This document shows positions 3,788 to 53,751 of a DNA stretch of 64,000 nucleotides, in pieces. Numbering within the stretch: the stretch's first letter is position 1; every line of letters starts with the position of its first letter. The notes under the pieces were generated by a model. The model was not told the DNA's origin. It searched no databases and was given only the letters and a program-made list of their open reading frames with translations. The position numbers and the translations under genes are program-made. Location: positions 69,452 through 133,451 of the forward strand of contig CAZIZK010000002.1 of NCBI GenBank assembly GCA_964544225.1. Reading direction: 5' to 3'. The stretch comes from an uncultured Candidatus Saccharibacteria bacterium. Its GTDB lineage: Bacteria > Patescibacteriota > Minisyncoccia > Phycocordibacterales > UBA9973.

Positions 3788-3808
3788 TAAATAAGCATTT
3801 CGTGTTAA

Positions 3809-3827
3809 TATATATATATATATATAT
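3809..3827. repeat. (TA)9 dinucleotide tract abutting the start codon
   Basis: tatatatatatatatatat directly precedes and overlaps ATG 3826. A homologous (TA)5 tract precedes the paralog at 25797-25807. Confidence 0.9.
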
Positions 3828-6636
3828 GAATTCAAGCAATAAATTAAAACAAATATTTATATCTACATTTATTGTTGGTATTTTTGTATTATTCTTAATA
3901 CCTTTAAATACAAATGCAGCAACTTGGACACAACAATTAGGTTCAGGTAGTAGGTATTGGTCCGATGTAGCTTCATCATCTGATGGTACAAAATTGGTAG
4001 CGGTAGGAAATAATAGTTCTGATGGAGTATATATCTACACATCAACCGACAGTGGAGCAACCTGGACAGAGCGAACAGGTGCAGGACAGCATAATTGGAG
4101 AGGGGTAGCTTCTTCATCTGATGGTACAAAATTGGTAGCTATATATTATGATGGTTCCGCTGGTTCTATATACACATCAAGTGACAGTGGGGCAAACTGG
4201 ACAGAGCGTACAGGCGCTGGTTCTAGGCAATTTTTTTCAGTCGCATCATCTGCTGATGGTACAAAGCTTGTAATTGGTGTAATTGGTGGTGGATATATCT
4301 ACACATCAAGTGACAGTGGGGCAAACTGGACAGAGCGTACAGGCGCTGGTAGCTCATATTGGTACAGTGTTGCATCATCAGCTGACGGTACAAAATTAGT
4401 AGCAGTAAAAAATACAGGTCTCGGTTCTGACTATATCTATACATCCACTGACAGTGGAGCAAACTGGACAGAGCGCACAGGTGCTGGTAATAAGCGTTGG
4501 ACAAGCGTTGCATCATCTACTGATGGTACAAAATTGGTAGCAGTAGAAGATAATAATAGTAATGCTGGTGGGGGGTATGTATACACATCTACTGACAGTG
4601 GTGCAAACTGGACACAACAAACTGGTTCGGGTCTTGATTTTTGGCAGAGTGTTGCATCATCTGCTGATGGTAGTATATTGATAGCAACAACATATAATTA
4701 TATATATCTATCTTACGATAGTGGTGTTAGTTGGGCAGCACAAACTCTTGCAGGTAATCAAACTTGGGGAAGCACTGCTTCATCGTCTGATGGTACAAAA
4801 TTCATTACATTTGCACCTGGTCCTGGTAATCTAGGTTATATATACACATCTCCTGCGATTGTCCCTTCGTTAACAACAGGTGCATCTTCATCTACAACAC
4901 AAACAACAACAACGTTATCTAGTAATATGGTAGATATAGGTGCAGACACACCAACAATACGAGGTGTCCAATATGGATTAACAACATCTTATGGATCAAC
5001 AGCTTCAGAAAGTGGTTCATTTAGTACAGGTGTGTACACCTTGGGATTAACAGGTCTGACTTGTAACTCTACTTATCATTATCGTGCATACTCAACCAAT
5101 AGTTCTGGTACAGGATACGGTAGCGACGCAACATTTAGTACTTCTTATTGTGCACCTACCATGACTTCTGGATCTTCTTCATCTATAGCTAGCACAACAG
5201 CAACTCTAGCTGGTGAAATAACGGCAAATGGTGGAGCAACAAGTACCATACGAGGTTTCCAATATGGCACAACAACCTCTTATGGATCCACAGTTTCAGA
5301 AAGTGGGTCATATGGACCATTTGGTACATACCTCTCCCAATTTGGAACAAATGGTGGTGGTGACGGAGAGCTTGATTATAGTCAAGGAATTGAAACAGAT
5401 TCTTCTGGTAATATATATGTTGTTGATCAGTATAATGGACGCGTTCAGAAATTTAACTCTAGTGGAACTTTTGTTTGGAAAACAAGTTATGCATTTGACT
5501 ATCCTACTGGTATAGCTATTGACTCATCGGGTAATCTTTATGTTCTTGATGGTAATAGTACAGTTGTAAAGCTCGACCCTTCTGGTATATATGTATCCCA
5601 ATTCAGTTCAAATGGTTCTGGCAATGGAGAGTTAGCATACCCTTATGCAATAGCTATTGACTCAGATGATAATATTTATATAGCTGATAGTGGTAATAGC
5701 CGTATTCAGAAATTCGATCCAAGTGGTGTGTATCTTTTGCAGTGGGATGGAAGTGATAGTCCTGATGGAGCTCTATCCGTTCCTCGAGGTATTGCAGTTG
5801 GTGCAGATGGTAATATATATGTATCTGAGCGTAATGCCTCAAGAAGAATTATAAAATTTACACCTTCTGGAGTTTATATTTCTCAATTCGGATCATCAGG
5901 CTCTGGAGATGGACAGTTTAATAGACCTCATGGTATAACAGTCGATTCTTTAGGTAATATATACGTAGCTGATATGAATAACAACCGTATTCAGAAATTC
6001 GATTCTACTGGTGCCTATGTAGCCCAATTCGGCTCATCTGGTTCTGGAAATGTAGAATTCTCGCAACCTTTTGATGTGGCTATAGATTCAAATAATAATA
6101 TATATGTATCTGATACTAATAATAATCGTGTCCAAAAGTTAGCAGTTTCTGGTAACTACACAGCTTCACTTACAGGTCTTGTGTGTGGAACCACATACCA
6201 CTACCGTGCGTATGCTACAAACTCTATAGATACTGGATATGGATCTGACGCGACATTTACCACATCTGCATGTGCTACAAGTTCTGCAACAGGTTCATCG
6301 GCTGGTAGTAGAATACAAAATTTATTAAATATGGGTAAAGTGGATGAGGCGCAAAAATTAGCACTCCAATTTCCAAATGCAGTAACTCCAACTCAAAATC
6401 AATTCAATACCCCAGGTATACAAATAACAAAGAAGCTGATAAGGGGTATTAAAGACAATGAAGTAAAGACACTTCAAACCATACTAAATAAAATATTAAA
6501 TATGAATCTAGTAATCGACGGAGCTTTTGGACTAAAGACTCGTAATGCTGTTATGGAATTTCAAAAGAAATATAATCTAAAGGCCGATGGGGTAGTAGGG
6601 CCTATGACAAGAGGGGTATTAAATAAATTATTATAG
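3826..6636 (+). CDS. Large secreted surface protein with BNR/Asp-box propeller, Fn3-like modules, NHL repeats and a C-terminal peptidoglycan-binding domain
   Basis: Signal peptide present. About seven S-x-D-S-G-A-x-W-T (BNR) repeats with a period near 46 aa. Two Fn3-like modules (LTGLxCxTTYHYRAYxTN..GxGYGSD). Six NHL repeats (GNIYVxDxxNNRIQKF). C-terminal DGxFGxKTxxAVxxFQKxxxLxADGVVGPxT = PG_binding_1. The ORF caller's GTG at 3802 runs through a (TA)9 tract. ATG 3826 (MNSSNKLKQ) is the likely start. Confidence 0.7.
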   Translation: MNSSNKLKQIFISTFIVGIFVLFLIPLNTNAATWTQQLGSGSRYWSDVASSSDGTKLVAVGNNSSDGVYIYTSTDSGATWTERTGAGQHNWRGVASSSDGTKLVAIYYDGSAGSIYTSSDSGANWTERTGAGSRQFFSVASSADGTKLVIGVIGGGYIYTSSDSGANWTERTGAGSSYWYSVASSADGTKLVAVKNTGLGSDYIYTSTDSGANWTERTGAGNKRWTSVASSTDGTKLVAVEDNNSNAGGGYVYTSTDSGANWTQQTGSGLDFWQSVASSADGSILIATTYNYIYLSYDSGVSWAAQTLAGNQTWGSTASSSDGTKFITFAPGPGNLGYIYTSPAIVPSLTTGASSSTTQTTTTLSSNMVDIGADTPTIRGVQYGLTTSYGSTASESGSFSTGVYTLGLTGLTCNSTYHYRAYSTNSSGTGYGSDATFSTSYCAPTMTSGSSSSIASTTATLAGEITANGGATSTIRGFQYGTTTSYGSTVSESGSYGPFGTYLSQFGTNGGGDGELDYSQGIETDSSGNIYVVDQYNGRVQKFNSSGTFVWKTSYAFDYPTGIAIDSSGNLYVLDGNSTVVKLDPSGIYVSQFSSNGSGNGELAYPYAIAIDSDDNIYIADSGNSRIQKFDPSGVYLLQWDGSDSPDGALSVPRGIAVGADGNIYVSERNASRRIIKFTPSGVYISQFGSSGSGDGQFNRPHGITVDSLGNIYVADMNNNRIQKFDSTGAYVAQFGSSGSGNVEFSQPFDVAIDSNNNIYVSDTNNNRVQKLAVSGNYTASLTGLVCGTTYHYRAYATNSIDTGYGSDATFTTSACATSSATGSSAGSRIQNLLNMGKVDEAQKLALQFPNAVTPTQNQFNTPGIQITKKLIRGIKDNEVKTLQTILNKILNMNLVIDGAFGLKTRNAVMEFQKKYNLKADGVVGPMTRGVLNKLL

Positions 6637-16479: not shown

Positions 16480-16551
16480 GCGCGTATAGTTCAGTGGTAG
16501 AACGCTGTCCTGATAAGACAGAGGCCCTTGGTTCGATTCCAAGTACGCGCA
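16480..16551 (+). tRNA. tRNA-Ile (anticodon GAT)
   Basis: Manual cloverleaf: acceptor GCGCGTA/TACGCGC, D-stem GTTC/GAAC, anticodon stem CTGTC/GACAG with loop CTGATAA, T-arm CTTGG-TTCGATT-CCAAG, discriminator A. CCA is not encoded. Confidence 0.9.
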
Positions 16552-23007: not shown

Positions 23008-23454
23008 ATGAATAAAAAAATATTATTAAAAATAGTCACACCGGAAAAGTTGGTCCTCGAAGAAGAGGTAGACCAAGTTACTTTCCCTACATCAGAAGGG
23101 GAGCTGACAATACTACCAGAACATATTCCACTAGTTGCATCTCTTGCATCTGGTGATGTGGTTGCAAAGGTAAATGATGAGTCTGTACCTATGGCTGTAT
23201 CTGGTGGGTTCGTCGAGGTAAAGAATGATATAAACAACAATACTGTGGTTGCAATCTTGGCCGACTTTGCTGAACATGTTGCCGATATGACAGACGACGC
23301 TATCAGTCAGGCCCGTGCCCGTTCCGAGGAACTCAGAAAGTTGGCCGAGGACAAAGGTACTGTGGACTTTGAACACTTTGCAACAGAATTGGAAAGGTCA
23401 CTAACCCGTGTAAAAATAGCCGATAAGTGGAAGAGCAAGAAGTATCGCAAATAA
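23008..23454 (+). CDS. atpC: F0F1 ATP synthase subunit epsilon
   Basis: Beta-sandwich N-terminus (LKIVTPEK..) plus helical C-terminus. Last gene of the operon. Confidence 0.85.
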   Translation: MNKKILLKIVTPEKLVLEEEVDQVTFPTSEGELTILPEHIPLVASLASGDVVAKVNDESVPMAVSGGFVEVKNDINNNTVVAILADFAEHVADMTDDAISQARARSEELRKLAEDKGTVDFEHFATELERSLTRVKIADKWKSKKYRK

Positions 23455-25173: not shown

Positions 25174-25796
25174 TGCAAGATTTTACAAAAAAAGAAATAG
25201 CACTGTTTAGAAAGTTAAATACACCGGCAAAGGTGCAGGACTTCCTAAATACTATTCCTTTCAATTTTGAAGAAGACGGCAAAGATGTTATAAAGTCACC
25301 ACTTCATGTAATACGTACTAACAATGCTCACTGTATCGAGGGGGCAATACTTGGTGCATATATACTGTCACTACACAGTCACAAGCCGTATATTATGAAT
25401 CTGCGTACAACTGCCCATGATCTAGAGCATGTGATAGTGCCTTTCAAGGTGGGCGGACTGTGGGGTTGTCTGTCAAAAACGAATCATGCAGTACTTCGCT
25501 ATCGTGACCCAGTTTACAAGACCATCCGCGAGTTGGTTATGTCGTATTTCAACGAGTATTATCTAGATGATGGCACCAAGACTCTGCGCCAATATTCAAA
25601 CCTAGTAAATTTAAATATTTTCAAGGATGATTGGTACAAGGCTGACTATGATTTGTGGAGTATCGACGATGAATTGGATAGTGCTATGTATCATGACATT
25701 GCACCAAAAAATATTTTGAAGAACTTACGCAAAGCAGACCCTATAGAGCGTGAGGCTGGTAAATTGATGAATTGGAAAAAGGGTAATATGTGTTAA
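25173..25796 (+). CDS. Hypothetical protein (possible Cys/His hydrolase fold)
   Basis: 207 aa ORF with conserved-looking NAHCIEGAILGAYIL and DLEHV segments. No confident family assignment. Confidence 0.4.
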   Translation: MQDFTKKEIALFRKLNTPAKVQDFLNTIPFNFEEDGKDVIKSPLHVIRTNNAHCIEGAILGAYILSLHSHKPYIMNLRTTAHDLEHVIVPFKVGGLWGCLSKTNHAVLRYRDPVYKTIRELVMSYFNEYYLDDGTKTLRQYSNLVNLNIFKDDWYKADYDLWSIDDELDSAMYHDIAPKNILKNLRKADPIEREAGKLMNWKKGNMC

Positions 25797-25807
25797 TATA
25801 TATATAT
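25797..25807. repeat. (TA)5 tract abutting the start codon of the paralogous surface protein
   Basis: tatatatatat precedes and overlaps ATG 25806. Homologous to the (TA)9 at 3809-3827. Confidence 0.9.
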
Positions 25808-27746
25808 GAATTCAAACAATAAATTAAAACAAATATCTAGAAATATATTATTTATATTTTCTTTTCTATCATTAGTTTTACCAACGAGTGTGTTTGCTGC
25901 TGCTGGTACTCCTGATACTACATTTACCACAAATATGGGTGATCCAGGGCTTGATAATGTTGTACGTGCTTCTGTTGTATTGTCTAATGACAAAATAGTT
26001 GTTGGAGGGTCTTTTAATTATTTAAATGACATAATAGATGCAAATTATGTTGCTGGGTTTAATAGTGATGGAACTCCGGATACTACATTTAATACAAATC
26101 TTGGGACAGGCTTTAGTGATGCTGTATATGCTATGGCTGTTCAATCTGATGATAAAATAGTTGTAGGAGGGTCTTTTACTGGTATAAATGGAACAACAAG
26201 CAATCGTATAGCTCGATTAAACAGTGACGGAACACTTGATACTACTTTTACCACAAATATTGGCACAGGATTTGGAGCTACTCGTGTAAACACTATCGCT
26301 ATCCAGTCTGACGGCAAGATAGTTGTTGGAGGTTCGTTTAGTACTATAAACGGGGTGACAAGTAACCGTATCGCTCGATTAAACAGCGACGGAACTCCAG
26401 ATACTACCTTTACCACTAATATCGGTACAGGGTTTGGTAGTAGCGTGTATCGTGTAGGGATACAGTCTGATGGTAAAATAATTGCTGGAGGAATATTTAG
26501 TACTCTTAATGATGTATCTACTACTACTATAGCTCGATTAAACAGCGACGGTACTCCTGATACTACATTTACCACAAATATTGGTACAGGATTTGATAAT
26601 GATGTACAAACATTAGCGGTTTTATCTAATGATAAGATCGTTGTCGGTGGATTAATAGAAAATTTTAATGGCACGAGTATACATTTCTTTACTGGGTTAA
26701 ATAGTGATGGTACATTAGATACAACATTTAATACAAATCTTGGGACAGGCTTTGGTAATTTCGTAGAGACCATCGCTATCCAATCTGACAATAAAATAAT
26801 AGTAGGAGGGTCTTTTACTACAATTAACGGTGTAACTAGTAACCGTATTGCAAGGTTAAGTAGTGTTGGAATCCCAGATACTACCTTTACCACTAATATC
26901 GGTACAGGGTTTGATGGAACAACACGCACGATTGCTTTCCAATCTGATGGTAAAATAATCGTTGGAGGGGCTTTTGGTTCTGTAAATAGTGTAACTAGTA
27001 ATTACGTTGCTCGTCTTGATGGTGATGTATTTGCTCCTACTGTCACTACTGGTTCAAGCTCGGCTATTACCACAACTACTGCAACCCTTGCCGGTAATAT
27101 AACAGTCACCGGTGGTGAGAATAGTACAACTCGTGGAGTCGAATATGGTCTAACAACAGGTTATGGTACAACTTCATCAGCTTCAGGAAGCTTCAGTACA
27201 GGTGCGTATACTACCGACATCACCGGTCTTACTTGTGGCACTACATACCACTATCGTGCGTATAGTACAAATACTGCAGGTACTGGTACAGGTAGTGATG
27301 ATACATTTACCACATCTACTTGTCCTGTAGTTGCAAGTACTAACAATACTTCTTCTGGGTCATCTGCCGGATCTCGAGCTTCCAACCTATTTGCTATGGG
27401 TAAAGTAACTGAAGCAAATAAAATACTGCAACAATTCCCAAATGCTATAAATGAAATCAAAGATGCAAATACAAAGAATGCTCTATCAAATACAAATACT
27501 GAAAATTCTAATTCTAATATTTCTGGATCAAAGATAACAAAGAAGTTGATTAAAGGTATGAAAGATAATGAAGTAAAGATACTTCAAACAGTTCTAAACA
27601 AAGTATTAAAACTCGGTTTAACTGTAGATGGTGTATTCGGTCAGAAGACCAAAGATGCTGTTATGCAATTCCAAAAAGCTAATAATCTAAAGGCCGATGG
27701 GGTAGTGGGGCCTATAACAAGAGGTGTTTTAAATAAATTACTATAA
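25806..27746 (+). CDS. Secreted surface protein with delta-60-like beta-propeller repeats, one Fn3-like module and a C-terminal peptidoglycan-binding domain
   Basis: N-terminus MNSNNKLKQI is near-identical to the 3826 gene. About nine repeats of roughly 60 aa (GTPDTTFTTNIGTGFG..IQSDGKIVVGGSF..INGVTSNRIARLNSDG). Fn3-like GLTCGTTYHYRAYSTN. The C-terminal PG_binding_1 is about 70% identical to that of the 3826 protein. Confidence 0.7.
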   Translation: MNSNNKLKQISRNILFIFSFLSLVLPTSVFAAAGTPDTTFTTNMGDPGLDNVVRASVVLSNDKIVVGGSFNYLNDIIDANYVAGFNSDGTPDTTFNTNLGTGFSDAVYAMAVQSDDKIVVGGSFTGINGTTSNRIARLNSDGTLDTTFTTNIGTGFGATRVNTIAIQSDGKIVVGGSFSTINGVTSNRIARLNSDGTPDTTFTTNIGTGFGSSVYRVGIQSDGKIIAGGIFSTLNDVSTTTIARLNSDGTPDTTFTTNIGTGFDNDVQTLAVLSNDKIVVGGLIENFNGTSIHFFTGLNSDGTLDTTFNTNLGTGFGNFVETIAIQSDNKIIVGGSFTTINGVTSNRIARLSSVGIPDTTFTTNIGTGFDGTTRTIAFQSDGKIIVGGAFGSVNSVTSNYVARLDGDVFAPTVTTGSSSAITTTTATLAGNITVTGGENSTTRGVEYGLTTGYGTTSSASGSFSTGAYTTDITGLTCGTTYHYRAYSTNTAGTGTGSDDTFTTSTCPVVASTNNTSSGSSAGSRASNLFAMGKVTEANKILQQFPNAINEIKDANTKNALSNTNTENSNSNISGSKITKKLIKGMKDNEVKILQTVLNKVLKLGLTVDGVFGQKTKDAVMQFQKANNLKADGVVGPITRGVLNKLL

Positions 27747-43847: not shown

Positions 43848-43888
43848 TATTATACCACAAAGGCCCAAGTGTCCCCTTGGGCCTTTGG
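43848..43888 (-). promoter_or_regulatory. Terminator-hairpin + TTTGTGGTATAAT extended -10 module
   Basis: Minus strand reads ggcccaaggggacacttgggcc-TTTGTGGTATAAT. The same module recurs at 46401-46438. Confidence 0.55.
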
Positions 43889-43923
43889 TATTTAACTATC
43901 TAGGTATATAATGCCCTTATGAT

Positions 43924-44041
43924 CCCGTTAGAGGCCGCGGTCACGCTAATCAATACGGAATTGTATCATTTAATTTATAATATTAATTAGGTTAGGAGTG
44001 TTTCTATTTTAGAATATAGATCGCGACCTGCCTCTAACGGG
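43924..44041. mobile_element. MITE-like element, copy A
   Basis: CCCGTTAGAGGCCGCG..CGCGACCTGCCTCTAACGGG terminal inverted repeats with an AT-rich interior. Flanked by ATGAT (43919-43923) and ATGAAT (44042-44047). The right flank is the start codon of the PhnA-like gene. Confidence 0.6.
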
Positions 44042-44281
44042 ATGAATAATGAAGAAGACGAAGATGTAGTAATACAGCGCGATGCCAACGGTAACATATT
44101 GGCCAATGGTGACAGTATTACACTGATAAAGGATTTAAAATTAAAAGGTAGTAGCACTGTGATAAAGAAAGGCACAAAGGCCAAGAATATTCGCCTGACC
44201 GATGTTGAGGGCGAGATAGAATGCAATATCGACGGCATGCGTGGTATAGTCCTAAAAACTGAATTTATCAAAAAAGCCTAA
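44042..44281 (+). CDS. PhnA-domain protein (lacks the N-terminal zinc ribbon)
   Basis: DANGNILANGDSITLIKDLKLKGSS..KKGTKAKNIRL matches the E. coli PhnA C-terminal domain. Confidence 0.65.
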   Translation: MNNEEDEDVVIQRDANGNILANGDSITLIKDLKLKGSSTVIKKGTKAKNIRLTDVEGEIECNIDGMRGIVLKTEFIKKA

Positions 44282-45417: not shown

Positions 45418-45451
45418 AACATTCCTACATTCTCAAGAATGTAGGAATGTT
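45418..45451. promoter_or_regulatory. Perfect 16-2-16 palindrome P1 (candidate ArsR-family operator)
   Basis: AACATTCCTACATTCT-CA-AGAATGTAGGAATGTT. Lies 10 bp upstream of the tag ATG and overlaps the last codons of the regulator gene. Confidence 0.6.
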
Positions 45452-45717
45452 TTTATGAACTTTGTAATTTGTTTTCCGTATGGTGAAAGAGAGTGCGCTA
45501 CTTGCCTACCCTTGTAGTTTTTATTTAGCAAGCCTGCTTGCACCAGTCTGCGAGTATGTTCAGAAACTGTTTTAAAATTAGCTTTCAATTGTGTTGCTAT
45601 TTCGTCGACAGTAATACCATCATGCTTTTCAACTATCAGGAGGATGTCTATTCGACGATGATTCGCGATACCTTTGAAGTGCCTCTCGATCTGTTTACTT
45701 GTTTTGATCTTTTGCAT
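45433..45717 (-). CDS. ArsR/SmtB-family winged-helix transcriptional regulator
   Basis: ..RRIDILLIVEKHDGITVDEIATQLKANFKTVSEHTRRLVQAGLL.. HTH. 94 aa. Leaderless-type promoter (TGATATAAT 8 nt before the ATG). Confidence 0.75.
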   Translation of the reverse strand: MQKIKTSKQIERHFKGIANHRRIDILLIVEKHDGITVDEIATQLKANFKTVSEHTRRLVQAGLLNKNYKGRQVAHSLSPYGKQITKFIKTFLHS

Positions 45718-45733
45718 GTTTTAATTATATCAA

Positions 45734-45767
45734 GACATTCGCACATTCTCAAGAATGTAGGAATGTT
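45734..45767. promoter_or_regulatory. Palindrome P2 (candidate operator overlapping the regulator's own promoter)
   Basis: gACATTCgcACATTCT-CA-AGAATGTAGGAATGTT, two mismatches from P1 and P3. Sits immediately upstream of the -10 of the ArsR-family gene. Confidence 0.6.
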
Positions 45768-45814: not shown

Positions 45815-46180
45815 TTACTTCCCTTCTACGAATTTGAGTGATATTGAATTTACACAGTGGCGGGTGTTTTTGTCTGTTAGCATCTCGCCTTCGAATACGT
45901 GGCCTAGGTGGCCACCACAGTTTGCACAAGTGATCTCTTGCCCATAATATGGATCAATATAAGAGGCTCTTTTGATAGCACCTGGAATCTCCTGATCAAA
46001 ACTTGGCCATCCGCATGTATATTCGAATTTATCCTTTGAGTCATATAGCGGTGCATTGCACTGCTTGCACACATATACACCCGTTGCTTTGTTATTCACA
46101 TACTCACCGGTAAAAGGCATCTCGGTCCCTTTGTCCACTATCACCCTCTTCTCTTCCTCTGTTAGTTGATTTAATTGCAT
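45815..46180 (-). CDS. msrB: Peptide methionine sulfoxide reductase MsrB
   Basis: SelR domain with CxxC..CxxC zinc site and catalytic RHCVNS. Start taken at MQLNQLTEEEK. The ORF caller's 5' extension overlaps the upstream small gene. Confidence 0.85.
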   Translation of the reverse strand: MQLNQLTEEEKRVIVDKGTEMPFTGEYVNNKATGVYVCKQCNAPLYDSKDKFEYTCGWPSFDQEIPGAIKRASYIDPYYGQEITCANCGGHLGHVFEGEMLTDKNTRHCVNSISLKFVEGK

Positions 46181-46190
46181 GTTATTTTTT

Positions 46191-46394
46191 TTATAACGGA
46201 ATTCCAAAACATAAAGATCTTTCTTCGGCATCTGCCAATTCTTTTGTAGGAGTATAGGTAAAGCCATAGCAATGCTTCTTTTCATTTGCCTCCCATGCAT
46301 CGTATATTTCTTTTGTTGTATAACCTGGGTACGTAACAAATGACTTTGGGAAAAAGAATACTGCTATTAAAATAAAAATTATCAAGTATTTCAT
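46191..46394 (-). CDS. Small secreted/membrane protein upstream of msrB
   Basis: MKYLIIFILIAVFFF signal/TM. 67 aa. Leaderless-type promoter 6 nt upstream. Confidence 0.35.
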   Translation of the reverse strand: MKYLIIFILIAVFFFPKSFVTYPGYTTKEIYDAWEANEKKHCYGFTYTPTKELADAEERSLCFGIPL

Positions 46395-46400
46395 AAGCCA

Positions 46401-46438
46401 ATTATACCACAAAGCCCGAGTGTTCCCTCGGGCTTTTT
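46401..46438 (-). promoter_or_regulatory. Terminator-hairpin + TTTGTGGTATAAT extended -10 module
   Basis: Minus strand reads gcccgagggaacactcgggc-TTTGTGGTATAAT, with the -10 six nt before ATG 46394. Confidence 0.55.
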
Positions 46439-46445
46439 ATTATAA

Positions 46446-46483
46446 TGAACATTCCTACATTCTCAAGAATGTAGGAATGTTCA
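46446..46483. promoter_or_regulatory. Perfect 18-2-18 palindrome P3
   Basis: TGAACATTCCTACATTCT-CA-AGAATGTAGGAATGTTCA, upstream of the small-protein/msrB operon promoter. Confidence 0.6.
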
Positions 46484-46487
46484 TTGG

Positions 46488-46739
46488 TTAATTTTTTCTC
46501 CAGCGTGGGGCGAAGCGGATCATGAATGTGTAAAACTTGGCTAATATATATGGGGTGCCACTTTTACGCATGGATTCGTAGCAGACTTTTTGAAACTCTT
46601 TCAAGTCATTGCCTTCGTAACAAAGCTTGCCGCCCTTGTAGCACAGGCTACAATAAATATCGCTCTCCCTTACCCCTGGGTCCTTACTAAAAGGCATTAA
46701 ACAACTCTGACACGCATTACATTTTTTGTTTTGGCTCAT
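46488..46739 (-). CDS. Putative zinc-ribbon domain protein (Zn_ribbon_2-like)
   Basis: CNACQSCLMPF..YCSLCYKGGK pattern. Confidence 0.5.
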   Translation of the reverse strand: MSQNKKCNACQSCLMPFSKDPGVRESDIYCSLCYKGGKLCYEGNDLKEFQKVCYESMRKSGTPYILAKFYTFMIRFAPRWRKN

Positions 46740-46942
46740 ATAAATATATTACTAAAATATTTTCTAGAGGTCAAAAATTTTTCAAATAAATACTCTATTT
46801 GACTAACGATTTACTTAATAACAGATTGGACTAAGTATAAAATATCCTTACTAAATAATAATCTTTTAGTAAAATTAAAAGTTTTATTTTAATGTAGCTT
46901 TAAATTTAAATACAAACTAGCGCTTTATTCATCTATTGAATT

Positions 46943-47815
46943 ATGCTATATTATTTTTATATGCAATTACAATACTTTACATATTTTTTAAACCCTCTGA
47001 GTACTCCGAGCTTATTTCCTGAAACGAGACCTAAAAAGGAAATATTCAGACAAGTCTTACAGCAGAAAAACTTAAAATATAAGGCTTCTGGATCAGATTT
47101 AGCCTACGTTTTTGAAAAAGAAGATGGAGATTATATAGTTGCTAAATTAGGCAAAAAGCAATCTCTTAAGAGAAGCCTTCCTCCAGAAGAAAGGTTTGAA
47201 GAAACTATTGATGAAAATTGGCCACATTGTTTAGTTTTTTTTAATTTAGATGAAAATCCTAATACAGGTCAAAAAATTGCATTTGAATATAAAACAAATA
47301 TTTTTAAAACACCCTTTGTCCAACTGCAAGATCTTGCTGAGGAACTAAATATTGCACTTTTTAATTCTAATTATGCTGTGTCAATTCATCCAGTAACAGA
47401 AGAGAGAAAGTTTTGGGATATTGTTAAAGAAAACCAAGGTAAGATTGAAAAAGTAACTTTTTCTTTTAATGCACCAAATCTTTTTAATCTAAAAAATAAT
47501 TTAAATGACGATTTAAGAAATGCTCAGGAGAAATTTGGACTAACAAAGGCAACCGTTGAATTCGAAAATCCACAAGGGAAACTCACTCTTTCAGAAGATA
47601 ATGATTTTTTACAACAAGGCGTAGAGTATGTTCGTAAGGGAGGAGGAGACTTTCATCTTAAAATAAAAAATAGTAAAAGCAGAATAATCAGAAGTGAGGA
47701 TGGTGTGATGACTAAAACAGTTGATTATGAAGATATTGAGGCAAGAATAAAATTTGATAATCCTAATGTTATCAACAGTGCAATTAAAAATATTTTTGAT
47801 AAAATAAAAGAATGA
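46943..47815 (+). CDS. Hypothetical protein (AT-rich island)
   Basis: 290 aa ORF with no recognisable motif. Overlaps the next gene by ATGA. Confidence 0.4.
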   Translation: MLYYFYMQLQYFTYFLNPLSTPSLFPETRPKKEIFRQVLQQKNLKYKASGSDLAYVFEKEDGDYIVAKLGKKQSLKRSLPPEERFEETIDENWPHCLVFFNLDENPNTGQKIAFEYKTNIFKTPFVQLQDLAEELNIALFNSNYAVSIHPVTEERKFWDIVKENQGKIEKVTFSFNAPNLFNLKNNLNDDLRNAQEKFGLTKATVEFENPQGKLTLSEDNDFLQQGVEYVRKGGGDFHLKIKNSKSRIIRSEDGVMTKTVDYEDIEARIKFDNPNVINSAIKNIFDKIKE

Positions 47816-48264
47816 GATTTCTTGGATTTTTATTTTTAACAATTCTAATTTCTGCTGGTATTATTACTGTAGATATTCTTCTTCCTGGAAATTTTTTAAT
47901 TAACTTTATCAATAATCATTACATTGAAACCTTTGCTTCTTTAATTGGTTTCAATCTTGCGTCAGTAACATTTTTACTCGGACAACTTATTACCATTGAA
48001 GCAACAATAAATCAAGAGTCTATGTTCGAATCAACAAGAAAAGAAATAAAGCACAATGCATTCTTTTTAATTTTTATTTTTGTTGTAGCTTTACTCCTTT
48101 TAACTTTTAGACCTGATATAGGTATAACTGGAAGATTTGACCTAAATATTGCTTATTATGTGGTTAATACTTTAGTAATTTCTATATTTTTAATGGCCTT
48201 GTTTGCTATTTTTGAAATATTGAATTCTGTATTTTCTATAGGTAAATTTTTTAAGAAAAAATAA
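47812..48264 (+). CDS. Hypothetical 4-TM membrane protein (AT-rich island)
   Basis: 150 aa with 4 hydrophobic helices. Translationally coupled to the 46943 gene. Confidence 0.4.
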   Translation: MRFLGFLFLTILISAGIITVDILLPGNFLINFINNHYIETFASLIGFNLASVTFLLGQLITIEATINQESMFESTRKEIKHNAFFLIFIFVVALLLLTFRPDIGITGRFDLNIAYYVVNTLVISIFLMALFAIFEILNSVFSIGKFFKKK

Positions 48265-48372
48265 TTTTTGATATAACAACAAGAATTAAAATTGTAAAAT
48301 TAATTAATCTCAAGTTGTTTTTTACCTATCTTAATAGGTCATTTATATCAATCGGTTCATGTGATTATTTTA

Positions 48373-49122
48373 CTATTTTTGAAATATAAATAAATGCTCG
48401 TGCATTATTAATAAGAAATTTGAATCTTTTGATTTTTGAACCCAAAATCCTGTAGCCTTGCAATTAAATTGCCTCTTAATAATGTCTTCTTTTAATTCAA
48501 AACCAGAATCTAAAAACTTTTGCATTACTTTGTATGCCAATGGCTGATACATTTTATTACGCCTTGTGTCCCCCATTAGAATTGCACAGAATTTACCTGG
48601 TCTTAATACTCGATATAATTCTTTTGCGGTCTTTTCAATTTCATAACAAAACTTGTCTATATCATGAATATTTGAAATATCGTCCTCTATTGTTCCATCG
48701 CTATATTTAATTATGTCTGCATATGGTGGATGAGTAAGAGCAAAATCTATCTCTTTATCTTTAATAAAGCTTAAATTTCTGGCATCACCCTTCACCACTC
48801 TTTGTTTAGATTTATTATCAACAATGAAATCTAAAGCTTTTATAGTTCTTTCAATAGCTACTTCATTAACATCTACACAAGTAATATGCCTATTTAAAAT
48901 TTTTGCTTCTATTGCTGTCGTGCCACCACCAATCATGCAATCTAGCAAATGGTCGCCCTCTTTTGAGTATCTTAAAATTAAATTCCGTACAACCTCTGGT
49001 GCCCAATTACCTCGCCAATCTGAAGTATGTGTAGCCCAGTTACCACGACGAGGAAAAGCCCAGACCGTAGTACACTCCATTTCAAAACTTTCAGGATGAA
49101 GTTTTAAATTTTTTTGAGACAT
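48373..49122 (-). CDS. DNA methyltransferase (N4-cytosine/N6-adenine, PF01555-like)
   Basis: Motif I LDCMIGGGTTAIEA and motif IV THPPYAD. The PF01555-like FP..L region precedes motif I. Confidence 0.7.
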   Translation of the reverse strand: MSQKNLKLHPESFEMECTTVWAFPRRGNWATHTSDWRGNWAPEVVRNLILRYSKEGDHLLDCMIGGGTTAIEAKILNRHITCVDVNEVAIERTIKALDFIVDNKSKQRVVKGDARNLSFIKDKEIDFALTHPPYADIIKYSDGTIEDDISNIHDIDKFCYEIEKTAKELYRVLRPGKFCAILMGDTRRNKMYQPLAYKVMQKFLDSGFELKEDIIKRQFNCKATGFWVQKSKDSNFLLIMHEHLFIFQK

Positions 49123-49130
49123 TGTTTTTT

Positions 49131-49751
49131 TTACTTTTTATTCCAACAATTTTTAGGAAAACCTATTTTCTTTAAAATATCTGTAAACGCAACATATTCA
49201 ATATGTTGTTCTTTGTAAAAAGCCAAGCTTTCTTTGAGTTCGATTGTTTGATTATTTTTATCTAAGAGATCTCCAAAAGCGAACTTTTCTCTAGCTTCAT
49301 ATTCTTGATAGCCAACTAAAATTATTTGTAGTGGTTTGTGATAAAGCCTTGGAACTTCTCCATATTTCAAAGGTACACCAAGAATTTTTTCGCCCGCAGT
49401 ACCTGGAGTAGACCAGCTTCTACCTTTTACTTCATAAACATAATCGTCACATTCTAAATCTGGATCATATTTTTTAGTTCTTAATGAGCTTTTTTTAGTG
49501 GTGGTAGACCTAACATTTTTTCTACCGAGCTTAATAAGTGCCTCCATTACTAATTCTTGGCAAAGTACAGTTGTCCATTGTTTTCCGCCAATGGTATTAA
49601 TAACCTTATTGCCCCAATCTTGCTCAATTTTCTTTGATTCTTTAAGCCTTTTCTCGCTTTCAGTATTACGCAAAGAAATATCAGTGATACCTTCATAGCA
49701 CCATTGAATAACTTTTGGATTATTAAGCAAATTTAAATTTTCTTTTTTCAT
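49131..49751 (-). CDS. Putative restriction endonuclease (PD-(D/E)xK-like)
   Basis: ECDDYVYEVKG resembles a (D/E)xK catalytic motif. Gene is immediately upstream of, and co-oriented with, the methyltransferase. Confidence 0.4.
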   Translation of the reverse strand: MKKENLNLLNNPKVIQWCYEGITDISLRNTESEKRLKESKKIEQDWGNKVINTIGGKQWTTVLCQELVMEALIKLGRKNVRSTTTKKSSLRTKKYDPDLECDDYVYEVKGRSWSTPGTAGEKILGVPLKYGEVPRLYHKPLQIILVGYQEYEAREKFAFGDLLDKNNQTIELKESLAFYKEQHIEYVAFTDILKKIGFPKNCWNKK

Positions 49752-49771
49752 AAATATTTTTTGATGTGAAA

Positions 49772-50860
49772 TTAGAATGGAATATCTAAAGGATCAATTT
49801 CTTCATTTTGAGTGTTAGGATCAGGTACATAATAAAATGTGTCTTTATTAATTTTATATGTTTCAATATATTTCTTTTTTATAGCTTCCCAATCTTCACT
49901 AGAAATATATCTGTCCTTTAAAGATGTTAGTAATAATTCAATTAAAGAAATATTATAATTACAAATTAATTTATAAAAATACTCATTAGATACTTTTATT
50001 CTGTCCTTTTCCGAATGTCGAACATCAAATATGCTGTTATTGAGTGTTTGGCATGTTTTTGCCATATCACTAATTATTACCATAAATTCCGCCTCCCTTT
50101 TTTCTTTTTCATCTGTGTTAACAACAATTAAGCTTACTAGGTCTTTTTTCAATCCATCTATAACATTCTTCTTTGATTCAGTTTCATCGCTAAAAATTAA
50201 TCCTAAAATCTCTGCAGATATTTTGGATGCATTTATGTAGTCATCTTCATCAAAGAAACTATAGTAAGAATTTATTTTTTCTGATAATTTAACATCTTTC
50301 AACTGAGATGCAATATTTCTCAAATCCTCTCCTTCGTTTTTAGTAATTAAGTCTTCTTTTATATAGTAATTAATTTTTTCTTCCTTAAAGATATTGTTAA
50401 TTCTATTAATGACATCTTTTCTTTGATTTGCTTTAGAAAAAAGAATAGTTGCTTCTAGTAAATCAAAAAGTATGAAATCATCGTAAACATCTTCCATAAT
50501 TTGTTTTTCATCATTACTAACAACTGATTCACCTTTAAATTTAAATGGGTAGTAATCAAAACTATCAGAAAATCTATACCCAAGTTCTGATTCAGAAAAA
50601 TCATCTATAAGTTTTTTGTTAAAGTAGTGGGCCTTGTCTTTTCTATTTTCAATTAGAATATATTTCTCTAAAAAAAGATCTGAGCTTGAAATAAATTTCA
50701 ATAGGGAAACTAATCTAATTCTTGTTTGAGAATTAATAATTTCATTCCTTTTCTGCCTATTTAAGTAACCTATTCTGGAATCTCTATTATTAACCGTGCT
50801 AGACCTATAAAAATTAGACGCAAATCCATCTCTTTTGTTTCTTTTTGAGAAAAGTTTCAT
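49772..50860 (-). CDS. Hypothetical protein within the restriction-modification island
   Basis: 362 aa, helical and charged. No recognisable motif. Tightly packed between the Dam-like methyltransferase and the putative nuclease. Confidence 0.4.
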   Translation of the reverse strand: MKLFSKRNKRDGFASNFYRSSTVNNRDSRIGYLNRQKRNEIINSQTRIRLVSLLKFISSSDLFLEKYILIENRKDKAHYFNKKLIDDFSESELGYRFSDSFDYYPFKFKGESVVSNDEKQIMEDVYDDFILFDLLEATILFSKANQRKDVINRINNIFKEEKINYYIKEDLITKNEGEDLRNIASQLKDVKLSEKINSYYSFFDEDDYINASKISAEILGLIFSDETESKKNVIDGLKKDLVSLIVVNTDEKEKREAEFMVIISDMAKTCQTLNNSIFDVRHSEKDRIKVSNEYFYKLICNYNISLIELLLTSLKDRYISSEDWEAIKKKYIETYKINKDTFYYVPDPNTQNEEIDPLDIPF

Positions 50861-50861
50861 A

Positions 50862-51830
50862 TTAATAATTAGTTACTAATACCTCTGTAATTTTTCCGCG
50901 ACCTGTGCCTTTTGAGTTTATCGATCTGCCAGCTTCGATTTTATTGATTTTCACCTTCTTGTCTTTTAATTCAGAATAGATCTTATTTATAAAAGGTGTA
51001 TCTGAATTTGAAAGCATAACAAAACAACCTCTGTTATGGAGCTGATAAAATACATCCCTGAGTTCTATCTGTTCTTTATCAAGGAAAGAATCGGCAGTAT
51101 AAGCAGTAAATGAAGAAGTTTTGTTGATTGGGTAATATGGTGGGTCAAAGTATATAAAGTCCCCTTTTTTAGCTTTCTTTAACACATTTTTATAATCTCC
51201 ATGATTAATTGTCACTTTTTGTAAAGAAGCTGAGACTTTTTTAAGATTCACCTCATCACAGATAAGAGCATTTTTATTTAATCCAAAAGGGGTATTAAAT
51301 CCACCTTGTTTATTAACACGATACAGGCCATTGAAACATGTCCTGTTTAAATAAATAAACCTTGAAGCTATCTCTACCTCTGATAAATCTTTAATATTTT
51401 TTGCACGAATTTTTAGAAAATAATCTTTATTGTTTTTATGTTTTTTAAGAGTTCCAATCAATTCATCCACATTATTTTTTATAACATTATAGGTAACTAC
51501 TAGTTCATTATTTAAATCAGAAAGTATTGCTTTTTTAGGAAGTAGGTCAAAGAAAACAGCACCACCCCCTACAAATGGTTCAAAATATGTGTTCTTTAAT
51601 GCATCAAAACCTTCAGGAGGATAGAAACCTAAATCACGAAATTGTTTTAATAATTGTCTTTTGCCACCTACCCATTTTACAAAAGGTTTTGCTTTTTCAT
51701 TAATTATTTTTTTAATTTCTTCAGGAACAAACTTACCTTTTGTGTGGTGTAAAATATGTTGAGCAAAAATTGAATTTATATCAAAATCCTTTTGAATTTT
51801 TTTAGATATTTCGTGTGTTGTCATGCTCAT
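50862..51830 (-). CDS. Dam-family DNA N6-adenine methyltransferase (D12 class)
   Basis: PFVKWVGGKRQLL N-terminal motif and IYFDPPYY catalytic motif. Start taken at MSMTTHE (ORF caller used a TTG at 51863). Confidence 0.85.
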   Translation of the reverse strand: MSMTTHEISKKIQKDFDINSIFAQHILHHTKGKFVPEEIKKIINEKAKPFVKWVGGKRQLLKQFRDLGFYPPEGFDALKNTYFEPFVGGGAVFFDLLPKKAILSDLNNELVVTYNVIKNNVDELIGTLKKHKNNKDYFLKIRAKNIKDLSEVEIASRFIYLNRTCFNGLYRVNKQGGFNTPFGLNKNALICDEVNLKKVSASLQKVTINHGDYKNVLKKAKKGDFIYFDPPYYPINKTSSFTAYTADSFLDKEQIELRDVFYQLHNRGCFVMLSNSDTPFINKIYSELKDKKVKINKIEAGRSINSKGTGRGKITEVLVTNY

Positions 51831-51859
51831 ATATTTTAGCACAAAATATTGATTTTTAG

Positions 51860-52033
51860 TCAATTTAATTCCTTTAGCAAATCCTCATAATCAAGCGGCT
51901 CAGTGACCATTTCGACGAGGCCGTCGTTGGAGACTTTCCGTTCATTCTTTGGCCTGTCTACGTATATCTCTACCCCATTGTTGTCGGGGTCGCGTAGGTA
52001 GATGGCCTCGGACACGCCGTAAGGCAGTAATAT
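51860..52033 (-). pseudogene. Fragment of a VOC-family (glyoxalase/ring-cleaving dioxygenase) gene, C-terminal 57 codons only
   Basis: Minus-strand frame reads ILLPYGVSEAIYLRDPDNNGVEIYVDRPKNERKVSNDGLVEMVTEPLDYEDLLKELN*, with an in-frame stop immediately upstream and no start codon. Typical VOC beta-alpha-beta-beta-beta C-terminus. Confidence 0.55.
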
Positions 52034-52735: not shown

Positions 52736-52975
52736 TTATAATAAATTATCTATCCCGCCGCCGTCGGTGACATGGGTAAAGCCATTCTCTGCCAGCATGT
52801 TGCAGGCCATCATGGATCGGTTGCCCGATTCGCAATACACTACTATCTCGGCACCCTTTTCTATATCAGGGAACTTGCCATACATCATGTCCATAATGTC
52901 GTGATGTATCGCACCGTCTACACAGCCACAATCATACTCGCCTTTTGTTCGCACATCTAAAATATACCTAGTCAT
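52736..52975 (-). CDS. Single-domain rhodanese sulfurtransferase
   Basis: Starts MTRYILDVRTKGEYD. Active-site CESGNRS. TTGTGGTATAAT sits directly upstream, so likely leaderless. Confidence 0.75.
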   Translation of the reverse strand: MTRYILDVRTKGEYDCGCVDGAIHHDIMDMMYGKFPDIEKGAEIVVYCESGNRSMMACNMLAENGFTHVTDGGGIDNLL

Positions 52976-53044
52976 ATAGCTATTATACCACAATAAAAAA
53001 GAACCCTTTTACCAGACAGCGACCCGGTCGCTGGTTGGTTTGAC

Positions 53045-53113
53045 CCCGTTAGAAGCCGCCCTCTTTAGTAAAAGAGTGCTACGGTCACCTTGGGGCGACC
53101 TGCTTCTAACGGG
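53045..53113. mobile_element. MITE-like element, copy B (short)
   Basis: CCCGTTAGAAGCCGCCC..GGGGCGACCTGCTTCTAACGGG terminal inverted repeats. Perfect 7 bp direct repeat GTTTGAC on both flanks (53038-53044 and 53114-53120). The right copy forms a TTGACA -35-like hexamer. Confidence 0.6.
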
Positions 53114-53166
53114 GTTTGACAATAGGGTTATTTAGGAGTACTTTTAAAAGAAAAAGGAGGTAAATT

Positions 53167-53751
53167 ATGTTCCAAAAAACAATTTTTCTAGGCTTGTTGG
53201 ATCAATACGCAGATGTATTTTCCCACAAAGAAGATGATGGCGACTTGGTTATAAATCTGAAGGACAATGTAAAGAAACGCATTTTTGAAAGATTCTGGCA
53301 AGAATTTATCGACCTTGCGTGGTTGATAGGGCTAAAGAATACAAAAGTGAATGTGGAGTTGCGTTACAAATCAAAATCAGCTTCTGATATAGGTGATTAT
53401 TATCTAACAGGTAAAATTATATCACTTAAAAATGAATTATTTGTAGATTCTTATACTTCAATCTTTATGGATACTAATCAAATGCAATCCATGTCTGTAA
53501 GGAGGAATACTCTTGATTCAAATGATGATCTGATAGTTGATTATAAGTTAAATAATCATTTAGAGGATCAGGTGCGAATTTTCTGGAGTTTAGAGCCCCT
53601 AAGTGACATTGAAAGGTTTGATTGTATATTAAAAGAAGTAGAAAATGAATTTATTTCTCATACTAATAATCGTGCCTATTATCAGATCGGACTGGCTATA
53701 CCGATCTATAAAATAAAACGCCTTCGGTTCTATTCCATATACGAAGAATAG
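53167..53751 (+). CDS. Hypothetical protein
   Basis: 194 aa ORF with a strong SD (aaaggaggt). No recognisable motif. Confidence 0.4.
   Translation: MFQKTIFLGLLDQYADVFSHKEDDGDLVINLKDNVKKRIFERFWQEFIDLAWLIGLKNTKVNVELRYKSKSASDIGDYYLTGKIISLKNELFVDSYTSIFMDTNQMQSMSVRRNTLDSNDDLIVDYKLNNHLEDQVRIFWSLEPLSDIERFDCILKEVENEFISHTNNRAYYQIGLAIPIYKIKRLRFYSIYEE

Follow-up and report, generated by a model that had tools for sequence, protein, structure and literature searches.

A non-autonomous, hairpin-forming MITE-like element of Patescibacteria that probably preserved, rather than created, the promoter beside it

The window analyzed here, a 64,000-nt stretch of DNA from an uncultured Candidatus Saccharibacteria bacterium, contains a short element (copy B) at a divergent gene pair encoding a rhodanese and an ORFan protein. 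The core of copy B is 69 bp long (53045-53113) and has perfect 12-bp inverted repeats at both ends, with the left arm CCCGTTAGAAGC at 53045-53056 and the right arm GCTTCTAACGGG at 53102-53113. The heptamer GTTTGAC stands on either side of the core (53038-44 and 53114-20), and the region reads ...GCTGGTTG GTTTGAC, CCCGTTAGAAGC ... GCTTCTAACGGG, GTTTGAC AATAGGG.... To the right of the element lies a putative plus-strand promoter (53116-53144), composed of TTGACA (53116-21), a 17-bp spacer (53122-38), and a weak -10 box, TACTTT (53139-44). It is followed by the SD motif AAGGAGG (53154-60) and the ORFan gene on the same strand, which begins with the ATG at 53167 and encodes 194 aa (53154-53751 with the SD motif). 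The original prediction, made from the sequence alone, had described both the 69-bp element with its two terminal repeats and the succession of TTGACA, 17 bp, weak TACTTT, SD, and ATG, and the sequence bears out each of these positions. Among 5.8 billion proteins, gene 53167 has no homologue except itself, and it has no Pfam match. Upstream of copy B, a 13-bp inverted repeat (53011-37) was identified as terminator-like by a scan tool.

Two longer copies are present in the same window. Copy A consists of a 119-nt core (38292-38410) and an outer T:A pair (38291-38411 in total); the strand designated S is its plus strand, and the element adjoins the start codon of the minus-strand gene 37731-38291. 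It is flanked by a target site duplication (TSD) of sequence TCCA (38287-90 and 38412-15), and the original ATG (38416-14, minus strand) is still recognizable, with TATAAT ahead of it at 38429-24. Copy C has a 118-nt core (43924-44041), again with an outer T:A pair (43923-44042 in total), and its S strand is the minus strand. It adjoins the start codon of gene 44042-44281 (YjdM) and has the TSD TGA; the original plus-strand ATG at 43919 lies 6 nt past a promoter, TTGGTA-16-TATAAT (43885-43912). The three copies account for six strand-matches to the paired-terminus pattern in the window (both strands of each), compared with none in shuffled sequence. As the original prediction proposed, all three touch a start codon (copies A and C) or a -35 hexamer (copy B). 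A tRNA-like identity was also considered and rejected; ARAGORN found only a tRNA-Ile at 16480.

The distribution of the family was examined with two scans. The first covered one genome per species and required the two termini at a distance of 43-103 bp. It returned at least 120 stretches, nearly all of them, among the matches listed, in Patescibacteria MAGs, where fewer than 10 such matches would be expected by chance according to our own estimate. The lineages listed include Saccharibacteria, Paceibacterota, Nomura-, Kaiser-, Yanofsky-, and Kerfeldbacteria, and others. A metagenome scan aimed at the 66/69-nt subfamily to which copy B belongs also returned at least 120 stretches, which brings the family to at least about 250 copies from other genomes and metagenomes; only two copies were on viral contigs. 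The terminal inverted repeat shared by these copies is 13 bp long, Y-CCCGTTAGARGY...RCYTCTAACGGG-R, and its end 10 bp are nearly invariant. CCC...GGG termini occur in all copies, a feature that the search pattern required, although variant copies show it too. Of the 148 copies listed, 142 have complementary bases immediately outside the two 12-bp arms (T:A in 89, C:G in 52). With these bases counted into the element, the TSD is exactly 4 bp in 84 of these 148 (with 3 bp in 11 copies and 5 bp in another 7), and 8.9 4-bp duplications would be expected with the flanks randomly re-paired. An earlier parse with a 12-bp repeat and a 6-7-bp duplication was rejected, being compatible with 25 of the 148 copies compared with 84 for the 13-bp repeat and 4-bp duplication. 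The TSDs have the form TNNA, and TGAA, TGGA, TTTA, and TTGA (with their complements) are the commonest. Their length is fuzzy (3-6 bp) and the outer pair partly matches the flanks: where the 4-bp repeat is exact (158 copies), the flanking base that follows is identical to the end base of the element in 94 on one side (59.7 ± 5.1 expected) and in 77 on the other (58.9 ± 5.2).

Because the outer pair is complementary throughout the family and the modal TSD is 4 bp, copy B is better parsed as C + core + G (53044-53114), with C at 53044 paired to G at 53114 as the outermost bases of the terminal repeats and TTTGA (53039-43 and 53115-19) as the duplication. On this parse the outer G and C of the apparent 7-bp repeat are end bases of the element itself that match the flank by coincidence. 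Both occurrences of the perfect GTTTGAC repeat described originally are therefore real, and it is their reading as a 7-bp duplication that gives way to a 5-bp one.

Comparison of related genomes revealed sites that differ by the presence of an element. The window resembles Paceibacterota DNA, and its ATP synthase operon shares 77-85% protein identity with those of three other loci (L010, L200, and L215). The start of atpA in the window (19166) is empty, and the L010 orthologue has a 98-nt copy between ATGAGT repeats. Similarly, the AtpC protein of the window (148 aa) does not have the 25-residue in-frame insert of the L215 AtpC, the two proteins being 58% identical with a single gap block. Mobility is also evident from two near-identical copies located at different genes on one contig (L079). 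No empty-site allele was found for copy B itself because the neighboring gene 53167 is an ORFan present only in this genome. Terminal repeats, TSDs, high copy number, and presence/absence differences between related genomes all bear out the assignment of these sequences as MITE-like elements.

In the 66/69-nt subfamily, 92 of 101 copies listed have a length divisible by three, and placement was counted on 82 non-redundant copies among the matches listed. Long open frames contain 44 of these, in both orientations, and 13 adjoin a -35-like TTGACN that has a -10 box at a distance of 16-18 bp, against an expectation of about 0.5. Only three are at start codons, and the remaining 22 are elsewhere. 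Hosts of the in-gene copies include RsmH, PurD, PepA, and AtpC. In RsmH, PepA, and PurD, the element corresponds to a "PVRS...SNG" segment situated between duplicated Ile-Asp residues, and when PurD and RsmH were aligned to solved homologues, exactly this segment was left unmatched. Pfam confirmed the domains of the hosts and returned no family for the inserted peptide. Each insertion adds a net 72 or 75 bp. Within genes the copies invariably keep the frame open and have a net length divisible by three, and they lie in both orientations (21:23). Restoration of empty sites in silico gave no convincing case of a gene interrupted by a stop-carrying copy, which argues that the insert is translated rather than removed by RNA splicing. 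Excision as an intron or otherwise at the RNA level was rejected on the same grounds.

The minus strand of copy B, its S strand, is predicted to fold with a free energy of -39.0 kcal/mol (z -7.2), compared with -34.4 for the plus strand. Read 5' to 3' on this strand, the predicted structure comprises a 12-bp helix strand (P1), an unpaired A, hairpin P3 (GGUCGCC-CCAA-GGUGACC), the trinucleotide GUA, hairpin P2, a G, and the returning 12-nt strand (P1'). The right arm opens P1 and the left arm supplies its 3' strand, and an alignment of 33 69-mers preserves the full set of 12 P1 pairs. The junction A at 53101 is invariant in this alignment (A13 of alignment A1) and marks the polarity of the element. 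P3 occupies 53083-53100 and contains a conserved G.U pair, with compensatory changes at three of its seven pairs; the GTA junction follows at 53080-53082 (G32 and A34 invariant, T33 in at least 90%). P2, at 53058-53079, reads GC-A-CTCTTT-TACT-AAAGAG-G-GC on the minus strand, and five of its eight pairs have changed on both sides. A UUCG tetraloop in P2 was considered and rejected, since the loops are 3-nt UUC or varied 4-mers. Across the 33 sequences, 97.2% of cells are paired in the three-helix structure and nine pairs have changed in both partners. The covariation score of 0.207 compares with 0.083 in shuffles, none of 500 of which reached it, and control structures in which partners were slid by 1-3 columns have 33-53% of cells paired. 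The original prediction had instead paired the inner arms GCCGCCC and GGGGCGACC with one another, an arrangement other than that supported by the covariation, which indicates P2 and P3 as two separate hairpins.

The same plan (arm, A, 7-bp hairpin, GTA) is seen again in copies A and C and across many other subfamilies, even though the sequences of their helices are quite different. GTA is the most frequent triplet after P3 in the other subfamilies, and the junction A was found in 37 of 48 local-hairpin copies. The AT-rich variable segment sits in the loop of either P2 or P3, and inner positions of the terminal repeat covary as well (AGAAAT/ATTTCT, AGAGAC/GTCTCT). Wobble pairs in P3 are one-sided: among 73 unique copies there are 95 G.U pairs versus 6 A.C pairs, and the S strand is the better-folding strand in 68 of the 73. 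Since in-gene copies occur in both orientations, folding of the mRNA is not the selected feature.

These properties bear on how the elements move. Neither a longer element with these termini nor a transposase turned up in the window or among 244 loci (~1.7 Mb in total), and the "solo" ends encountered there are degenerate short copies. None of the 20 ORFs in the window encodes a transposase, and a tblastn search of the 244 loci with the ISEcp1 transposase (IS1380 family) gave only matches with E > 5. Neither a reverse transcriptase nor an HUH gene was seen adjoining any copy. We infer that the mobilizing enzyme acts in trans. The piggyBac superfamily, which has a prokaryotic relative in the IS1380 family, is characterized by CCC...GGG ends and a 4-bp TTAA-type TSD, and the TSD variants TCAA, TAAA, and TTAG are on record (PMC10813416). 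By analogy, the CCC...GGG ends and 4-bp TNNA duplications of the present family point to a piggyBac/IS1380-type DDE transposase, which is to be taken as a lead and not as a result.

Strand-specific wobble and conserved hairpins are unexpected for a plain double-stranded cut-and-paste element. A different route would involve a folded single-stranded intermediate (ssDNA or RNA of the S strand) recognized by a structure-specific enzyme that is HUH-type, integron-integrase-like, or dependent on a reverse transcriptase. The compensatory changes in P2 and P3, the covarying inner positions of P1, the excess of G.U over A.C pairs, and the greater stability of the S strand would all be expected of such an intermediate, and a single-stranded stage of the element itself may offer the simplest reading of the conserved fold and strand-specific wobble, although only tentatively. 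The occurrence of in-gene copies in both orientations, the variable TSD length, and the failure to find an autonomous DDE element in the window or the 244 loci are further points in favor of this route, under which copy B would likewise have inserted passively at a promoter edge. To our knowledge, HUH elements have neither terminal repeats nor TSDs, and part of the wobble bias goes back to a small number of ancestral states and does not reflect many independent events. No copy has a reverse transcriptase or HUH gene beside it, and the perfect terminal repeats, modal 4-bp TSD, and CCC...GGG ends are a signature of piggyBac/IS1380-type DDE enzymes (PMC10813416). On balance, we regard a single-stranded route as unlikely.

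At the level of the whole family, the dominant insertion site is the start codon. With adequate flanks required, 88 of the 147 copies listed directly adjoin the start codon of a frame that stays open for 60 codons or more; 3 would be expected at random positions and about 7 at TNNA-compatible positions. Together with the excess of -35 junctions described below, these counts uphold the target preference suggested in the original prediction. Long forms prevail at start codons (69 of 88), and orientation is strongly biased, with 54 copies having the S strand antisense to the gene and only 4 having it in the sense direction. The start codon at the junction is a hybrid, formed from the last base of the element (A or G) and the TG of the TSD. 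This explains junctions of the type "ATGAAC / element / GTGAAA" as well as the presence of C at the opposite end of all 11 copies that adjoin a GTG. A TATAAT-like box lies 4-11 nt before the original ATG in 38 of 78 upstream flanks, compared with 14 of 78 in the control, and an SD-like motif occurs in only 8 of the 78, so many of the target genes look leaderless. After insertion, none of the 78 start-codon copies has an SD within 16 nt of the start, and the first base of the start codon is paired in the 13-bp stem.

Several ways in which a start-codon copy might influence expression were considered. Upstream ORFs beginning at the displaced ATG have no common stop position (12 of 51 stop at the right-arm TAA), and both translational bypass and uniform uORF coupling were rejected on this basis. 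An element-borne promoter for the downstream gene was also rejected, since -10-like boxes are equally common on both strands and none was called gene-ward in copies A-C. An arrangement of a -10 box, an ATG, and a mini-ORF ending at the right-arm TAA is found in 12 of 88 copies, compared with 3 in the control; copy A carries it, with the peptide MYDNLVIIYF. SD-like pentamers in the gene sense are found about 35 nt upstream in 17 of 84 copies, again compared with 3 in the control.

One interpretation of these observations is that the structure serves the host as a functional RNA or cis-regulatory module, either as a 5'-leader hairpin for leaderless genes or as a small RNA, in which case copy B would act on the divergent rhodanese/ORFan pair. 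The strong, covarying fold and the orientation bias and predominance of long forms at start codons are consistent with such a role, and so are the leaderless mini-ORFs and the SD-like motifs. These candidate signals are, however, confined to 15-20% of copies. TSDs and presence/absence polymorphism are features of a mobile element, copies lie in both orientations within unrelated genes where they are predicted to be translated, and no promoter for the S strand of copy B is visible in the sequence. Rfam 15 returned no match at copies A, B, or C, either at the gathering score or with E up to 5. A host RNA module is thus quite unlikely to be the primary identity of these sequences. The orientation bias itself suggests either expression signals in the long forms that depend on direction or an integration process that responds to the polarity of transcription.

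Junctions with -35 hexamers form the second class of insertion site and include copy B. In the first (genome) data set, such junctions were found in 6 of 133 copies listed, where 1.0 would be expected. These 6 and the 13 from the 66/69-nt subfamily reproduce the geometry of copy B with better -10 boxes, and 9 of the 13 share its polarity. The expectation that insertions elsewhere would be associated with promoters is thus borne out in part, through the enrichment at -35 hexamers and start codons, and fails for the 44 of 82 subfamily copies that reside inside genes.

At copy B, deletion in silico of the element and one TTTGA gives back GGTTGGTTTGACAATAGG, which includes TTGACA. The -35 hexamer would therefore be older than the insertion, contrary to the original proposal that the duplication created it. 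The sequence TTGACA-17-TACTTT was not called by a consensus promoter scan because TACTTT matches the -10 consensus at only three of six positions. Copy B probably entered TTTGA, a site that overlaps the start of the -35 hexamer in the putative gene 53167 promoter; duplication of this pentamer, together with the terminal G of the element, would have rebuilt GTTTGACA on the gene side and preserved the core promoter. The DNA upstream, including the 13-bp inverted repeat, would have been displaced by 76 bp. We infer that the promoter of gene 53167 is functional, and the effect of copy B on it would be neutral or modest.

The converse explanation is promoter remodeling, in which gene 53167 would owe its promoter, or an altered form of it, to -35/-10 hexamers supplied or duplicated by the element. 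Some Correia elements of Neisseria act in this way, and promoter provision by Correia elements is on record (PMC10969869). This explanation draws on the position of TTGACA at the right junction, 17 bp from TACTTT, and on the recurrence of -35-like junctions far above chance, and it is very improbable given that TTGACA is already in the restored empty site, that the conserved termini CCCGTTAGA and TCTAACGGG (...TCTAACGGG-R) contain no match to a -35 or -10 hexamer, that the left duplicate TTGACC has no -10 partner at the right distance, that promoter scans call no gene-directed promoter inside copies A, B, or C, and that most copies of this subfamily lie inside genes. The proposal that such elements deliver or duplicate promoter hexamers is accordingly abandoned.

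The explanation that best accommodates these data is that copy B belongs to a family of non-autonomous, hairpin-forming, MITE-like or RPE-like elements of Patescibacteria, and that it probably preserved promoter hexamers it had neither made nor delivered. In this model, the family would integrate at T-N-N-A by a staggered cut that leaves a short TSD, modally 4 bp, and the 13-bp terminal repeats close the three-helix fold of P1, P3, and P2. A site preference of the form R-T[G/T]NA-Y, which resembles both TTGAC and ATGAA/ATGGA, would combine with survival wherever the TSD regenerates the signal. Copies would persist only where the TSD and end base rebuild a start codon or the TTGA of a -35 hexamer, or where the reading frame is maintained by a net length divisible by three. 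The 54:4 orientation bias at start codons counts against this model to the extent that sequence preference alone does not explain it.

No published description of the element or of its terminal sequence was found in the literature, including a MITE census of 183,000 genomes, and the family is apparently undescribed so far. In behavior, its closest counterparts appear to be RPEs, which also invade genes in frame, and Correia elements, which are likewise hairpin MITEs upstream of genes. RPEs insert a peptide segment into housekeeping genes and have no known transposase (PMC10969869). Like the present elements, they are short and palindromic, have no coding capacity of their own, and occur both in frame in unrelated housekeeping genes and between genes; no transposase is known for either family, and copy B's subfamily has more than half of its counted copies in open frames. 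This likeness is one of behavior. RPEs differ in their hosts (Rickettsia rather than Patescibacteria) and in size (~100-150 bp versus 66-125 bp). The present termini, in contrast, have 10 bp that are identical across phylum-level diversity and a clear 4-bp TNNA TSD, and the long forms are mostly located exactly at start codons rather than inside genes. Correia elements (CREE/NEMIS, Neisseria) are MITEs of ~100-150 bp with terminal inverted repeats. Like the present elements, they are found chiefly a short distance upstream of genes and are transcribed together with them as hairpins; they are known to affect promoters and mRNA processing (PMC10969869, PMC2649163). They differ in having a TA duplication and ~26-bp repeats, compared with a 4-bp TNNA duplication and unrelated 13-bp repeats here. 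Correia ends also carry -35/-10 hexamers, with an IHF site inside, whereas the present ends lack such hexamers.

Other known systems resemble the family in part. The piggyBac/IS1380 elements and their MITEs share CCC...GGG termini, repeats of ~13 bp, and a 4-bp TTAA-type TSD (PMC10813416), and the left end of ISEcp1, CCTAGATTCTACG, has CC..TAGA in common with CCCGTTAGAAGC. The present family differs from these in the extra, variable complementary pair between TSD and CCC, and its three-helix fold and strand-specific wobble have no counterpart among them. With attC sites and REP/BIME elements it shares variable sequence within conserved structure and termini, one strand that folds better, and a size of ~60-140 bp. 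The attC consensus, RYYYAAC...GTTRRRY, is however opposite in polarity to the GTTAGA...TCTAAC found here, and attC sites flank cassettes in arrays and have no TSD, whereas the present copies have TSDs and are not in arrays. REP sequences are single hairpins of 20-40 nt with a 5' GTAG, extragenic and free of TSDs. More generally, PATEs of the IS200/IS605 type and REP/BIME elements have subterminal hairpins but neither terminal inverted repeats nor TSDs, and the present family has both.

For gene 53167 alone, this is an ordinary case of a selfish element beside a promoter not of its making. The family as a whole is of wider interest. Genomes of Patescibacteria are tiny and streamlined, with little room for mobile DNA, yet a hairpin element is spread among them from Saccharibacteria to Paceibacterota. 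It would do so by occupying harmless niches: first codons, where the start is rebuilt, the outer edge of -35 hexamers, and protein loops, with a net insertion divisible by three. In unculturable organisms the element could readily mark where genes start and where promoters lie, and it carries a warning for annotation, since 22-25-residue "PVRS...SNG" inserts and false upstream starts can be expected where copies are present. It also raises the question of how translation begins behind a 13-bp stem without a ribosome-binding site. A bolder proposal, to which we assign only a small chance, is that these elements form a hitherto unrecognized class, specific to Patescibacteria, that moves in single-stranded, folded form (10 of its terminal pairs being invariant) and rebuilds the start codons of often leaderless genes, and that start-codon copies have in addition been co-opted as 5'-leader translation modules of hundreds of genes throughout the superphylum. 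The family points to a mobilizing enzyme, and it is worth a dedicated study.

Copy B of the element (53044–53114) lies at the −35 edge of the gene at 53167–53751, an ORFan whose sole match among 5.8 billion proteins was itself and in whose product no Pfam domain was found. Immediately to the left of the copy is a 13-bp inverted repeat (CCAGACAGCGACC c GGTCGCTGGTTGG; 53011–53037), scored by a scan tool as terminator-like on the plus strand; there is no plus-strand gene upstream of it. This repeat could be an operator common to the divergent rhodanese and ORFan genes, and the insertion of copy B shifted it 76 bp further from the −35 hexamer. Its half-sites, GCGACC and GGTCGC, are similar to P3, one of the helices of the element.

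Judged by their sequence, several genes in the window look leaderless, with a TATAAT box 6–7 nt 5′ of the ATG and without a Shine-Dalgarno sequence. The starts of this type are that of the rhodanese gene (52958–52975, minus strand; tggTATAAT-agctat-ATG at 52975) and the pre-insertion starts of the two genes that carry an element copy at the start codon, 37731–38291 (copy A; start at 38414–38429, minus strand) and 44042–44281 (copy C; start at 43885–43921). In contrast, gene 53167 has a strong Shine-Dalgarno sequence. On the minus strand of copy A (38292–38410), TATTAT is followed after 7 nt by an ATG, which opens a 10-codon ORF (MYDNLVIIYF) that spans hairpin P3 and has the TAA of the terminal repeat as its stop codon, 4 nt 5′ of the gene start codon. 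Of the 88 copies abutting the start codon of an open frame, 12 have this arrangement, versus 3 in the reverse-strand control.

The window also holds a perfect 34-nt palindrome, AACATTCCTACATTCTCAAGAATGTAGGAATGTT, in three copies (45418–45451, 45734–45767, and 46448–46481; 100%, 91%, and 100%) on either side of an ArsR-like 94-aa ORF (45433–45717) and MsrB (45815–46339). These could represent another small repeat family or common operator or terminator hairpins. From ~46000 to 52000, GC content is 29–32%, compared with about 40% elsewhere. This low-GC island contains two DNA methyltransferases, one of the N6_N4 type (48373–49122) and one D12/Dam-like (50862–51863), as well as several ORFs without a Pfam match, and was probably acquired as a restriction-modification region. 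A peak of the cumulative GC skew near 38 kb and a change in gene orientation near 34 kb, with most genes on the plus strand before it and most on the minus strand after it, fit a replication terminus at ~34000–38000. A LexA-like gene is located at 36853–37422. Two large ORFs, 3802–6636 (944 aa) and 25806–27746 (646 aa), are made of 123–162-nt tandem repeat units; their 5′ regions are near-identical (3816–3902 and 25796–25882, 77% identity), and the products look like paralogous, repeat-rich surface proteins.

For two insertions in related Paceibacterota, the window provides natural empty sites. The atpA start codon (19166) corresponds to a 98-nt copy in L010 (5293–5390), and atpC (23008–23454) to a 69-nt in-frame copy in L215 (12659–12727) that adds 25 residues. 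Minimal versions of the element, of 27–28 nt, consist of the terminal stem and a 3–5-nt loop (L032, 3725–3814; L039, 6015–6041; L128, L163, and L187, all loci from other genomes or metagenomes). Some are in metagenome-assembled genomes labelled non-Patescibacteria (Smithellaceae, Planctomycetota), with different flanks. These versions are arranged in tandem pairs or nested within larger copies, and they suggest that the terminal hairpin may by itself be the mobile or recognised unit of the element.
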